64,000 nucleotides of DNA from Nitrospirota bacterium (GTDB lineage: Bacteria; Nitrospirota; Thermodesulfovibrionia; Thermodesulfovibrionales; UBA1546), in assembly GCA_009773185.1 (NCBI GenBank), contig WPIF01000003.1, positions 12,760 to 76,759 on the forward strand, written 5' to 3'. The notes under the pieces are model-generated. The model did not search any database. It was not told where the DNA came from and was given only the letters and a program-made list of their open reading frames with translations. Both the position numbers and the translations under genes were made by a program. Positions 15,908 to 42,871 of this stretch are shown here, piece after piece. Positions within the stretch are counted from its first letter, which is position 1. Every line of letters starts with the position of its first letter.

Positions 15908-17938
15908 TCCGGCTGGTATTGTTATCGTGAATACGCTCCCCTTGCCGGCTTCGCTTTCAACGGTTAAGGTCCCGTTCATCTTCTTGATTATATCATAACT
16001 CACGGCAAGCCCTAAGCCCGTGCCTTTTTCCTTGGTTGTATAAAACGGGTCGAATATTCTTTTCACATCTTCTTTTGAAATGCCCATGCCTGTATCCTCG
16101 AACTGAATGACGATACCTTCTTCCTTTATAAGGCTTTTGACTGTAAGGGTCCCCACGTCAGGCATTGCATCTATGGCATTCAATGTAAGATTTACAAATA
16201 CCTGTGAGAGCATGTTGCCGTCACATGCTACCTCAGGCAGCGATGCTGAAAGCTCTTTTACGATGGAAATATTCTTTGCCTTTTTGTCGTATTGGATAAG
16301 GTTTATAGACGTCTCTATAATCTCATTTATCTGACATTTCTTCAGCTCTCCTGCGGGCATCCTGGAAAAACCTGAAAGCTGCTTTAATATCTCGGAAATC
16401 CTGTTTATATGGAAGTAGATGGTCTCAAGGCTCTCCTTTTTGAAGTCATCCTGTTCCATCTCCCTGAGTATCTGGACAAAAGAGAATATGGATGTGAGAG
16501 GATTCCCGATCTCATGGGCAATACCTGCTGCAAGCCTGCCGATGGAGGCGAGTTTTTCTGAATGGATTATCTGTTCTTCCATGTTTTTCATCTCTGTTAC
16601 ATCCTGCACAAGCCTTATATATCCGTGTATTTCACCATCCTCGCCTTTTACAGGCGCTGTAGTAACCTGGAAATATTTATCTTTCTGCCCGAAGAGGTTG
16701 GACAATATTACCGTATCAATATTGCCCTTTGCGTATGATTCAGAGATAGCGCAGTCAGGGCAGACCTCCTCACAGGGCTTCCCTATGAGCTCCGTACCGG
16801 CCATGTATTTTATCATCTGATTGGCCCACTGAATTTCCCCTTTTTTATCTATAAGGATAATCCCTCCGCCTATAGCGCTTACAATGGTATCCAGTTTTTC
16901 CTTTTCGCTTGCAAGTTCTGTTGTCCTCTCGCTTACCTTGTTTTCCAGTTCAACCGCATATTTTTCCAGCTCCTGTTTTCTTTTTGCCACCTCTTCTGCC
17001 TGTATTCTTTTTTTGTTAAATACAATTAACAGCGCCGAAACAACGCTTGTTGTTATGAAAATGGAAATAATCAGCCAGGAATAAAGCTTCATGCTCTGCC
17101 TTGTGGCATATGTTACCTCTGAATACGGCGATGACACAGCTATTACCCATGAAATGCTTCCGCCGATATCGGCGGTGGAGAAAGCAATAATCTTGTCTTC
17201 TCCAGAAGCAGCAATGTATCTGCCGTACTTATCCGCCTTACCCTCGACTATTCTTTTTTCAAGGTCGAAGCTTATATGACATTTAAAGCATGTGGCGTCA
17301 GCCTTGTACAGGTTTCTCCCTACCATTTCAGGCTGGGTCGGATGATAGAGCAGGTTGCCGTCCTTGTCCATCATCCACGCATACCCCTTTGTGCCTGACT
17401 TAAGGTCCTTGAAAAATTGATTTGCAATGTCCTGAATTTCTGATGAGAAAAGCACTATGCAGGCCAGCTGGTTATTTTTATATACAGGGGCTATAACAGT
17501 AATCATCGGCTGCGTTTCCACTATCTTTGCATCCAGCGATTTTATATTGCCGGCCTCCTTTATTGCCTGAGGCACCAATTGCTTTATTAAAGCTCTATCC
17601 CCTCTGTAAAAAAGGATATTTCCCCCGGCATCGAGTATCCCAACATTTGTTTTTATCAGCCTCTTATGTTTCAATTCGTTGGCTATTAATACGTCAAAAG
17701 CGGTTTCATTTTCAATGCCTTTTTCCGGCAGTTCCCTGGCAAGTTCCACAATCTCTTCTTTAAGGAAGTAAAAGTATGATTTTATGTTGTTTGCCGTGGA
17801 TGTGGAGAGCAGGAGCTGGTGCTTGTTGAATTGTTCTGCTACCTCCATCTGCAGGGATTGCTGAAAAAAGATGTTAAGGGTAATGAGGGCAGAGATTATT
17901 ACTATAAGGGTGCCGATTATCAGCAAATAACCTTTCAC
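15902..17938 (-). CDS. Sensor histidine kinase with a periplasmic Cache domain carrying a CxxCH motif
   Basis: TM1, Cache-like YAWMMDKDGNLLYHP, CFKCH, TM2, PAS-like, AGIAHEIGNPL, KGTGLGL. Confidence 0.9.
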   Translation of the reverse strand: MKGYLLIIGTLIVIISALITLNIFFQQSLQMEVAEQFNKHQLLLSTSTANNIKSYFYFLKEEIVELARELPEKGIENETAFDVLIANELKHKRLIKTNVGILDAGGNILFYRGDRALIKQLVPQAIKEAGNIKSLDAKIVETQPMITVIAPVYKNNQLACIVLFSSEIQDIANQFFKDLKSGTKGYAWMMDKDGNLLYHPTQPEMVGRNLYKADATCFKCHISFDLEKRIVEGKADKYGRYIAASGEDKIIAFSTADIGGSISWVIAVSSPYSEVTYATRQSMKLYSWLIISIFITTSVVSALLIVFNKKRIQAEEVAKRKQELEKYAVELENKVSERTTELASEKEKLDTIVSAIGGGIILIDKKGEIQWANQMIKYMAGTELIGKPCEEVCPDCAISESYAKGNIDTVILSNLFGQKDKYFQVTTAPVKGEDGEIHGYIRLVQDVTEMKNMEEQIIHSEKLASIGRLAAGIAHEIGNPLTSIFSFVQILREMEQDDFKKESLETIYFHINRISEILKQLSGFSRMPAGELKKCQINEIIETSINLIQYDKKAKNISIVKELSASLPEVACDGNMLSQVFVNLTLNAIDAMPDVGTLTVKSLIKEEGIVIQFEDTGMGISKEDVKRIFDPFYTTKEKGTGLGLAVSYDIIKKMNGTLTVESEAGKGSVFTITIPAGS

Positions 17939-17981
17939 TCTTAAATATAACAGAAAACAGAAGGTTTGATAAACTATGACT

Positions 17982-18108
17982 TAAAGGCGGTGCATAATAT
18001 TCTCGCTCATTCTCGACCCGATGACTCGGGTCTCCGAGGTTTTGCCTGTCCATGCATTCTGCATAGAGGCAGGCAAAAAAACCGCTCGAATACCATACAC
18101 CACCTTTA
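17982..18108 (-). other. ~127-nt structured intergenic element, copy 1 (copy 2 at 42724-42855)
   Basis: Long terminal stem, inner stems and three conserved blocks shared with copy 2; stem mismatches become G-T on the minus strand. Confidence 0.75.
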
Positions 18109-42235: not shown

Positions 42236-42711
42236 AAATATCCTCAGGGTCTTTATTCATTTTACTGCTGGCCGTTTCTATTGCATTGTTTTCAGTGTCT
42301 GCTTTTGGAGAGGATAAAAAAGAAGCGCCTCTTTACACAAATCAGGATATTGAAAAATACAAGAAGCCTTCTGACAGCAAAGCTGCAACTGTAAGGACAG
42401 ATAAGACATCTGAAAAAAGCGGGAAATCACAAAAATTAAAAGAAGAACACGAGAAAGAATACTGGTGCAAAACAGCAACCTCTTATAAAAGGAAAATAGA
42501 AAAGGTAAGAGATGATATTGCAGAGGCTGAGAAGGAACTCTCGGGAGAAAGCAGCATGCATCTTTCCTATAAAAAGAAAAAGACAATTCAAAATAAAATA
42601 ACGAAATCAAAGAAGCAGCTAAGGTATGCTGAAAAAGATCTTGCTGAATTTGAGGGCGAAGCCCACAGAAAGGAAGTCCCTCCCGGATGGCTGAGGTGCC
42701 AGTTTGAATAA
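42232..42711 (+). CDS. Hypothetical exported coiled-coil protein
   Basis: Signal peptide, YTNQDIEKY motif, coiled coil, two Cys; TTG start overlapping the kdsA stop. Confidence 0.7.
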   Translation: MKISSGSLFILLLAVSIALFSVSAFGEDKKEAPLYTNQDIEKYKKPSDSKAATVRTDKTSEKSGKSQKLKEEHEKEYWCKTATSYKRKIEKVRDDIAEAEKELSGESSMHLSYKKKKTIQNKITKSKKQLRYAEKDLAEFEGEAHRKEVPPGWLRCQFE

Positions 42712-42723
42712 TAAATCAATAAA

Positions 42724-42855
42724 GCAGGGCCGGGACATAGCATTTTCGCTCATTCCCGGGCTTCGCCCTCCGAGGTTTTGCCCGCTTTTATATTTTGATT
42801 TTTACTGTGTGAATTGCGGGCAAAAAAACCGCTCAAATACTATGCCCCAGCCTGC
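42724..42855 (-). other. ~132-nt structured intergenic element, copy 2
   Basis: Shares TCGCTCATTC, CTCCGAGGTTTTGCC and GGCAAAAAAACCGCTC with 17982-18108; different but base-paired stems. Confidence 0.75.
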
Positions 42856-42871
42856 AAGAAAGCAGTTATAA

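Follow-up and report, generated by a model that had tools for sequence, protein, structure and literature searches.

We read two structured sites in the window (the whole stretch of DNA analysed, 64,000 nt, C20:12760-76759 of the Nitrospirota genome G000) as members of an uncatalogued multi-copy family of intergenic elements that work as a single folded strand, the minus strand of the window, and we give this reading a probability of about 0.5. The data firmly establish as new a widespread, strand-specific three-way-junction family whose junction is invariant and whose stems covary freely, and which is multi-copy in the Thermodesulfovibrionales. The best reading of this family is that of a structure-selected repeat with a REP/ERIC-like lifestyle, acting as one folded strand, probably RNA.

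An earlier note on this DNA had described two copies of an element of ~130 nt, of a family that it did not recognize. A covariance model of the element family, built from 64 copies, placed both copies at these sites on the minus strand (Table 1), and Rfam holds no matching model. The shared blocks of 10, 15 and 16 nt that had been reported are all exact in both copies; the outer stems, also as described, differ in sequence and still pair, with four minus-strand G-T pairs in copy 1 and three, plus a one-base bulge, in copy 2. The folding energy of copy 1 was -69.0 kcal/mol for the minus versus -51.8 kcal/mol for the plus strand, with a z-score of -10.0 versus dinucleotide shuffles; the values for copy 2 were -59.9 versus -49.3 kcal/mol, with a z-score of -5.3. 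On the minus strand, both copies form a long closing stem around two hairpins. Both are intergenic and their neighbours are as the note had it, with two minus-strand ORFs flanking copy 1 and two plus-strand ORFs flanking copy 2. The short ORFs overlapping the copies (e.g. 17874-18053 and 42704-42871) are mechanical ORFs within the repeat, without support as genes.

Table 1. Coordinates of the two window copies and their parts (window positions), and of related features in other sequences (contig or locus positions).
Feature	Coordinates	Strand	Remarks
Copy 1, whole element	17982-18108	minus	covariance-model match 93.6 bits; G000:C20:30741-30867
Copy 1, P1 5′ arm, sense AAAGGTGGTGTATGGTATTC	18088-18107	minus	16 Watson-Crick and 4 G-U pairs with 17983-18002
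Copy 1, junction block GAGCGG	18082-18087	minus	exact in 104/112 copies
Copy 1, P2 hairpin GGUUUUUUUGCCUGCC...GGACAGGCAAAACC	18040-18081	minus	minority 'UUUUUUUGCC' subtype
Copy 1, junction block CCUCGGAG	18032-18039	minus	P2 end, P3 base, 3-nt GGA bulge
Copy 1, P3 hairpin ACCCGAGUCAUCGGGU	18016-18031	minus	
Copy 1, junction block CGAGAAUGAGCGA	18003-18015	minus	
Copy 1, P1 3′ arm, sense GAATATTATGCACCGCCTTT	17983-18002	minus	
Copy 2, whole element	42725-42855	minus	104.2 bits; G000:C20:55484-55614; upstream of and antisense to kdsD
Copy 2, P1 5′ arm, sense GCAGGCTGGGGCATAGTATTT	42835-42855	minus	
Copy 2, junction block GAGCGG	42829-42834	minus	
Copy 2, P2 hairpin	42776-42828	minus	long A/U-rich loop
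Copy 2, junction block CCUCGGAG	42768-42775	minus	
Copy 2, P3 hairpin GGCGAAGCC	42759-42767	minus	
Copy 2, junction block CGGGAAUGAGCGA	42746-42758	minus	one change off consensus; G001 has CGAGAAUGAGCGA
Copy 2, P1 3′ arm, sense AAATGCTATGTCCCGGCCCTGC	42724-42745	minus	3 G-U pairs and a one-base bulge
Shared block TCGCTCATTC	18003-18012 (copy 1); 42746-42755 (copy 2)		
Shared block CTCCGAGGTTTTGCC	18032-18046 (copy 1); 42768-42782 (copy 2)		
Shared block GGCAAAAAAACCGCTC	18072-18087 (copy 1); 42819-42834 (copy 2)		
Nested-hairpin copies, G000 examples	C8:31991-32149, C27:77186-77344, C9:20943-21099, C19:62271-62432, C15:146053-146196		
Adjacent inverted pairs, G319	C1:266709/266879, 517117/517299, 732672/732843, 831292/831427, 1378090/1378283; C3:148322/148577, 471813/471999		
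Repeat of ~170 nt	G000 C22:31399-31556, C20:118206-118379, C24:8168-8335, C33:17115-17271; L190:242-415		

The element folds as 5′-[P1]-GA-GC-GG(RUU)-[P2]-CC-UC(GGA)-[P3]-GAG-AAUGA-GC-GA-[P1′]-3′, a three-way junction of the closing stem P1 (17-26 bp, free in sequence) with the hairpins P2, free in both sequence and length, and P3, which has 3-9 bp above a CUC/GAG base and its 3-nt GGA bulge. The junction is made of the near-invariant strands GAGCGG, CCUCGGAG and CGAGAAUGAGCGA, and a direct repeat, UGAGCG, lies on both sides of the core. In copy 1, GAGCGG begins with the tandem G-A (the GA dinucleotides beside P1 are opposed in the model and could pair in this way), continues with a G-C and a C-G pair with the 3′ GAGCGA and ends in the start of P2. 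In the G000 genome, GAGCGG is exact in 104 of the 112 copies, CCTCGGAG in 93, plus 11 with one change, and CGAGAATGAGCGA in 84, plus 21 with one change, so that, depending on the block, 104-112 of the 112 copies have at most one change; CCUCGGAG was invariant in all of 29 cross-phylum sequences. Sequence is fixed at the junction nucleotides only; the stems are maintained by compensatory change within the genome, between orthologues of different genera and across phyla. The P2 and P3 loops of copies outside the focal family are frequently CAGGAUG or CAGGGAUGG. About 12 copies of G000 bear a nested hairpin, CCACCCCTCTTAAATTCCCCCCTTACCAAGGGGGGAAC...GGGGGGTGAGG (CCCCCC...GGGGGG), in the P2 loop, as a module within the module, suggesting that secondary insertions are tolerated in P2 or attracted to it.

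The covariance-model scan of genome and relatives that the earlier note had proposed found 112 copies in G000 (2.79 Mb in 44 contigs, judged 100% complete), including the two of the window, and more in its relatives. The copies are 93-190 nt long, with a median of 132, and together make up 0.54% of the genome. The 10-mer GAATGAGCGA occurs 95 times in G000, versus ~5 expected, nearly always within the same architecture. The window copies are of a minority subtype with GGUUUUUUUGCC in P2, the majority of copies having GGUUUUAUUUUGCCGAUA...AAGAGGCAAAAUACC. The comparison with Rfam by Infernal, likewise proposed in the note, matched the element to none of its families. With the whole window and gathering thresholds, Rfam 15, which includes the hammerhead, twister, twister-sister, hatchet, pistol, hairpin, HDV-like, TwoAYGGAY and IS605-orfB motifs, recovered one tRNA only; both copies at E <= 10 gave chance-level matches, of 9-21 bits against cut-offs of 80-688, and eight cross-phylum loci showed no match to the element at E <= 1. 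A full-text literature search with the invariant junction strings and for Nitrospirae/Thermodesulfovibrio repeats found nothing relevant.

All 20 sampled genomes of the same family carry the element, in 2 to >81 copies, and other families of the order have a patchy 0-15 copies; among the 301 genomes sampled from the phylum, 38 are carriers, 34 of which belong to this order. A scan for the exact pattern, with one public genome per species, gave at least 117 loci among the matches listed, most from Nitrospirota/Thermodesulfovibrionia MAGs; the other labels among the matches listed were Planctomycetota, Latescibacterota, Gemmatimonadota, Desulfobacterota, CPR (Parcubacteria and Saccharibacteria), Elusimicrobia and Nitrospinota MAGs. 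By MAG label, the element thus extends to at least seven phyla beyond Nitrospirota, although some bin labels may be wrong. Several distant MAGs have multiple copies, with a stem G+C (up to 75%) that matches the host genome; the stems of distant copies are unrelated in sequence to those of the window and the junction blocks are identical. The 2.9 million viral contigs of IMG/VR yielded only two matches, and there was none in PLSDB plasmids or in INPHARED phages.

Base pairing is strongly maintained. Among 104 copies from other genomes, 94.2% of the pair cells hold standard pairs, versus 39-49% when partners are slid by 1-3 columns, and 803 cells have both sides changed, with a covariation score of 0.69 versus 0.12-0.14; none of 500 shuffles attained the observed pairing or covariation values. 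Since this alignment was fitted to the model, the test was repeated on a plain MAFFT alignment of 29 cross-phylum sequences with 48% mean identity, for which RNAalifold predicted 36 pairs, 31 of them kept through double changes. Orthologues of copy 1 in G000 and G009, which belong to different genera and have 71% identical flanks, differ by three double compensatory changes in P1.

The fold is also specific to one strand. The sense strand was the more stable in 109 of the 112 copies of G000, by a mean of 7.9 kcal/mol, and in 26 of 27 distant copies. Mismatches in P1 (18 inner pairs in 103 cleanly parsed copies) are one-sided, with 198 G-U versus 21 A-C and 34 U-U versus 4 A-A; in other genomes, the G-U:A-C ratio was 178:49. 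This excess holds whether the copies are antisense (113:14), sense (36:4) or in a mixed gene context (49:3), and whether the regional strand is G-rich (54:3) or C-rich (144:18). A mutation bias linked to transcription or replication would flip with orientation; as no flip is seen and the excess follows element polarity in all classes of orientation and skew, we attribute the asymmetry to the element itself and discard mutation bias as its source. The view of the earlier note that folding is selected on one strand whatever the host transcription is therefore borne out, and the further copies display both the covariation and the strand bias whose absence it had named as evidence against it. Differences between G000 and G001 orthologues in resident antisense copies (15:5:10 for G-U:A-C:other) point weakly to selection that may be acting within these copies.

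Copies occupy short spacers, at a median of 10.5 nt from the neighbouring stop codon and 22 nt from the next start codon. According to longest-ORF gene maps, which are crude and in high-GC phyla too unreliable for an orientation bias to be read, 68 of the 85 G000 copies between co-directional genes are antisense and 17 sense (4:1, p = 2e-8); the figures for other Nitrospirota are 38 and 11. The antisense excess appears for genes on the G-rich strand (50 versus 5) as well as on the C-rich strand (12 versus 6), which makes gene direction the main correlate, with the sense strand being the C-rich strand in 80 of the 112 copies. Sense and antisense copies appear to fold equally well. No recurrent neighbouring gene was found in ~100 loci, and we recognized no promoter or terminator signals for the element, a sigma-70-like site at a fixed position, outward or internal, being present in just 8 of the 112 copies and absent from copy 2. 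Many of the copies in G319, a long-read MAG labelled Nitrospiraceae, are arranged as adjacent inverted pairs, mostly divergent and with starts 135-255 nt apart (Table 1); pairs of this type were not seen in the focal genome.

We lean towards reading the fold as RNA, because of the tolerance of G-U and U-U on one strand only, the tandem G-A flanking the junction and an invariance confined to the junction. Two observations weigh against RNA: 80% of the copies are antisense to their operon, with so few sigma-70-like sites, and G-T pairs and the junction fold are possible in single-stranded DNA too.

A rather unlikely alternative is that the element acts as single-stranded DNA, its exposed sense strand folding and being recognized by an HUH/Y1 transposase, a tyrosine recombinase or a host replication or repair factor, and its orientation keeping the folding strand off the most exposed strand (the non-template strand or the lagging-strand template). 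It would account for a strand-specific fold that is independent of host transcription, for multiple dispersed copies lacking target duplications and conserved termini, for the UGAGCG direct repeat flanking the core, and for a sense strand that is mostly the template and the C-rich strand, a siting similar to that of attC bottom strands in chromosomal integrons. Nevertheless, U-U mismatches and tandem G-A by an invariant junction are more typical of RNA, the ~100 loci have no neighbour gene in common, and replication-driven orientation was discarded because gene direction explains the data better than regional GC skew and because the 30 copies on a 1.57-Mb contig of a long-read MAG are in mixed orientations throughout, with no replichore-wide polarity.

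The transposase version of this alternative, which the earlier note had advanced as an HUH substrate of the REPIN/IS200 kind, finds no backing. The core is asymmetric, unlike the REP doublet, no Y1 gene is linked to a copy, and Y1 is absent from two complete genomes that carry the element, G006 (10 copies) and G010 (2), and occurs in genomes devoid of it. The search for a linked TnpA/RAYT gene that the note had advised turned up three Y1-transposase-like genes in G000, none of them flanked by copies. One is a 222-aa RAYT-like Y1 gene (C41:79707-80375) with its own 37-nt inverted repeat (79647-79683/80375-80410), which occurs nowhere else in the genome; similar Y1-like genes, of ~227 aa, are found in most relatives. 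G000 has a canonical 142-aa IS200-type TnpA at one end of contig C5 (C5:71857-72285). Its downstream 100 nt are found again, with 99-100% identity, at the ends of contigs C33, C38, C23, C11, C7 and C12, so this IS probably causes assembly breaks. No partner protein for the element was identified among the gene links examined.

It is quite improbable, in our estimate, that the copies are dispersed, independently active small RNAs, catalytic or acting as protein sponges (e.g. a new class of self-cleaving ribozyme carried on a repeat), with the junction as active site and the copy number as a relic of past mobility. In alignments, the free-sequence stems, invariant junction, GGA bulge, tandem G-A and cross-phylum spread do resemble small ribozymes and orphan ncRNAs, and the CAGGAUG and CAGGGAUGG loops in P2 and P3 outside the focal family also speak for this reading. 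On the other hand, no Rfam ribozyme or other model matched even at E <= 1-10, promoter and terminator signals were not recognized, and the 4:1 placement of copies antisense to genes strains the idea of an independently transcribed ncRNA. The variant in which the element is a CsrA sponge, an idea taken from the GGAUG loops in other phyla, fails, because CsrA (PF02599) is absent from all 20 focal-family genomes; moreover, loops of the focal family have no GGA, and G024 has GGAUG loops but no CsrA.

The copies appear to be old. Among those of G000 there are no near-identical full-length pairs; mean identity between copies is 70% for the cores and 59% for the arms, without correlation between core and arm identity (r = 0.10). 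The clearest case of what looks like core exchange without the arms, probably by gene conversion, is a pair of inverted copies lying 1.4 kb apart, C15:22519-22643 (+) and C15:23949-24073 (-), with 83-nt cores that are 100% identical and arms that are 58% identical; copy pairs with arms of 92-97% identity have, conversely, cores that are only 50-86% identical. We read these patterns as old, individually constrained copies whose modules would be exchanged at the conserved blocks. Gene conversion could homogenize the blocks within a genome but cannot account for their identity across phyla.

Individual sites turn over rapidly. When G000 is compared with G001, with flanks 85-98% identical, the arms are unrelated in 9 of 28 positional orthologues, and at the copy 1 locus the element of G001 points the other way and has a different core, laden with insertions. 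At the element, near-identical genomes were seen to differ by inversions, deletions and allele replacement. G000 also contains ~20 solo arms and truncated copies elsewhere and one arm-GAGCGA-arm hairpin, best read as a deletion between two UGAGCG repeats; insertion of the core into ready-made arm-GAGCG-arm hairpins was discarded, as this single hairpin is the only one in the genome. Two further repeats were noticed. A second, unrelated repeat (...GTCATTCCGGCTTGTCCGGAATC... / ...ATTCCCGACAAGCGGGAATGAC...) lies inside or replaces the element at the copy 1 locus of G001 (L131:2202-2400) and the copy 2 locus of G007 (L144:1341-1501), and looks like another small palindromic mobile repeat aiming at the same spacers. 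The other, of ~170 nt, has 83-85% identity between copies, is unrelated to the junction element and adjoins one element copy in G001 (Table 1).

One site is conserved in position. The locus upstream of kdsD, that of copy 2, is occupied in G001, G009 and G036, which amounts to positional conservation across two families. The kdsD copies of G009 (L141) and G036 have common arms (GGAGGAAGGCAT.TTGTTT) and P3 (GGTCGGAACGACC); that of G036, from another family, is the only copy in its genome (L121:1501-1632) and is decaying, with disabling changes. Single-copy genomes have no common context save this site. As the earlier note had advised, empty sites were compared. G003 lacks both window copies, and its spacers (e.g. 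the 11 nt from the stop codon to the kdsD start) show no duplication or footprint, and the seven sites filled in G001 and empty in G000 all look like deletions or replaced spacers, several of them keeping a 3′-arm remnant. Target duplication was therefore not seen at these two G003 and seven G000/G001 sites, but none of them is a clean young insertion, most of the 'empty' alleles being deletion remnants or diverged spacers. Nothing in these data requires ongoing transposition in G000, and the element does not appear to spread by a classical cut-and-paste mechanism of the kind that involves terminal repeats and a target duplication.

That the element is an ordinary MITE, derived by deletion from a DDE insertion sequence, with P1 as terminal inverted repeats and covariation reflecting subfamilies from different master copies, is very improbable: size, copy number, intergenic location, long inverted ends and the inner arms common to some subfamilies (e.g. 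GGAGGGAATTGTCTTT) would fit, but the ends are unconserved (the outer 5-10 bp of P1 are copy-specific and have no consensus) whereas the interior junction does not vary between phyla, the arms of a copy do not predict its core, near-identity over the full length is seen in no pair of copies, the filled/empty comparisons above show no target duplication, the genome has only truncated remnants and no longer element with the same arms, and a double-stranded protein-binding site would not yield one-sided mismatches. Mobilization by a reverse transcriptase (retron, group II intron or SINE-like) was also discarded, RVT_1 being absent from G001 (at least 81 copies), G003 (60 copies) and G007 (at least 81 copies).

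In the favoured reading, the invariant junction would be a docking or active site for a factor encoded away from the element, and the copies would be long-lived residents, rather than the product of a recent burst, each under purifying selection for its junction. Recombination at the conserved blocks would swap arms and cores from copy to copy, and deletion would remove copies. The 4:1 antisense placement would arise because sense insertions are purged from operon mRNAs, inside which the strongly folding sense strand would be harmful; the complement, with its A-C mismatches and a fold ~8 kcal/mol weaker, would be tolerated. This plausible counter-selection account of the orientation bias argues from the precedent of Correia and ERIC elements, and the apparently equal folding of sense and antisense copies is a point against it.

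A bolder proposal, which we hold to be unlikely, is that the junction (GAGCGG / CCUCGGAG / CGAGAAUGAGCGA, closed by a 20-bp stem of free sequence) forms the core, for catalysis or recognition, of a cross-phylum class not described before. This class would be either a new small ribozyme that cleaves or ligates itself and is carried on a repeat, or a folded-strand module, mobile or genome-organizing, that a ubiquitous host enzyme reads purely by its fold and that itself lacks a transposase, terminal repeats and target duplication. Conservation limited to the junction is what one normally expects of ribozymes, protein-docking RNAs or sites of single-strand recombination. If the main reading is right, half a percent of this genome is a structured module found in no database, with a 27-nucleotide junction as its sole fixed part, and many uncultivated Nitrospirota, along with scattered members of at least seven other phyla, are in the same position. 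The identity of the partner would add either a new class of RNA or a new way in which DNA that lacks an enzyme of its own can spread. The annotation of intergenic DNA in MAGs from groundwater and sediment gains a strong marker in the element, which is also a source of assembly breaks and rearrangements, and its 4:1 antisense placement is a natural experiment on the tolerance of strongly folded RNA in operons.

Several known systems share part of these properties. The ERIC/IRU sequences of Enterobacteria and Vibrio are imperfect palindromes of ~127 bp, and are similar to the element in size, in being intergenic within transcription units, in their dozens to hundreds of copies, in the long closing stem and in the maintenance of structure over sequence. 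ERIC is, however, a near-symmetric palindrome, reported with TA target duplication, whereas the element has an asymmetric three-way-junction core invariant across phyla, a strong G-U bias on one strand and a 4:1 antisense placement, and no blastn match in E. coli (20,395 records from 5,426 genomes). REP/REPIN sequences are likewise high-copy intergenic hairpin repeats that show compensatory changes and lack target duplication, and their active form is presumably a folded single strand. Nevertheless, REPINs are symmetric doublets of one REP and flank their RAYT (Y1 HUH) gene, unlike the element, in which P2 differs from P3, GAGCGG, CCUCGGAG and CGAGAAUGAGCGA are not mutual reverse complements, and the presence of Y1 does not track copy number.

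PATEs of the IS200/IS605 type have subterminal left and right hairpins, TnpA cleavage tetranucleotides and a lagging-strand-template orientation, in contrast to a single junction closed by both ends, with a sense sequence that 80 of 112 copies have on the C-rich strand and with no replichore polarity. The attC sites are also defined by structure and poor in conserved sequence, with one productive folding strand, a non-random chromosomal orientation and a variable, possibly branched centre; but they have R''/R' core sites (RYYYAAC / GTTRRRY) in an R''/L''-L'/R' arrangement, occur in cassette arrays and need IntI, whereas the element has no GTTRRRY/RYYYAAC ends and is found as single copies between unrelated housekeeping genes. 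Many of the non-focal copies resemble what is presumably the TwoAYGGAY RNA motif (RF01731), with two hairpins and AYGGAY-like loops (AUGGAU, ACGGAU or CAGGAU), although the Rfam model of this motif matches no copy at E <= 1, the motif lacks the junction blocks and the focal Nitrospirota family lacks such loops.

Finally, the Correia elements (NEMIS/CREE) of Neisseria and BOX/RUP of pneumococci are small structured repeats that are co-transcribed with genes and whose hairpins affect mRNA processing. Correia elements have conserved terminal inverted repeats and TA duplications, and BOX/RUP consist of modular boxes confined to a single genus; we know of none among them with a junction conserved across phyla. 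Both groups are, nevertheless, a precedent for orientation-dependent fitness effects.
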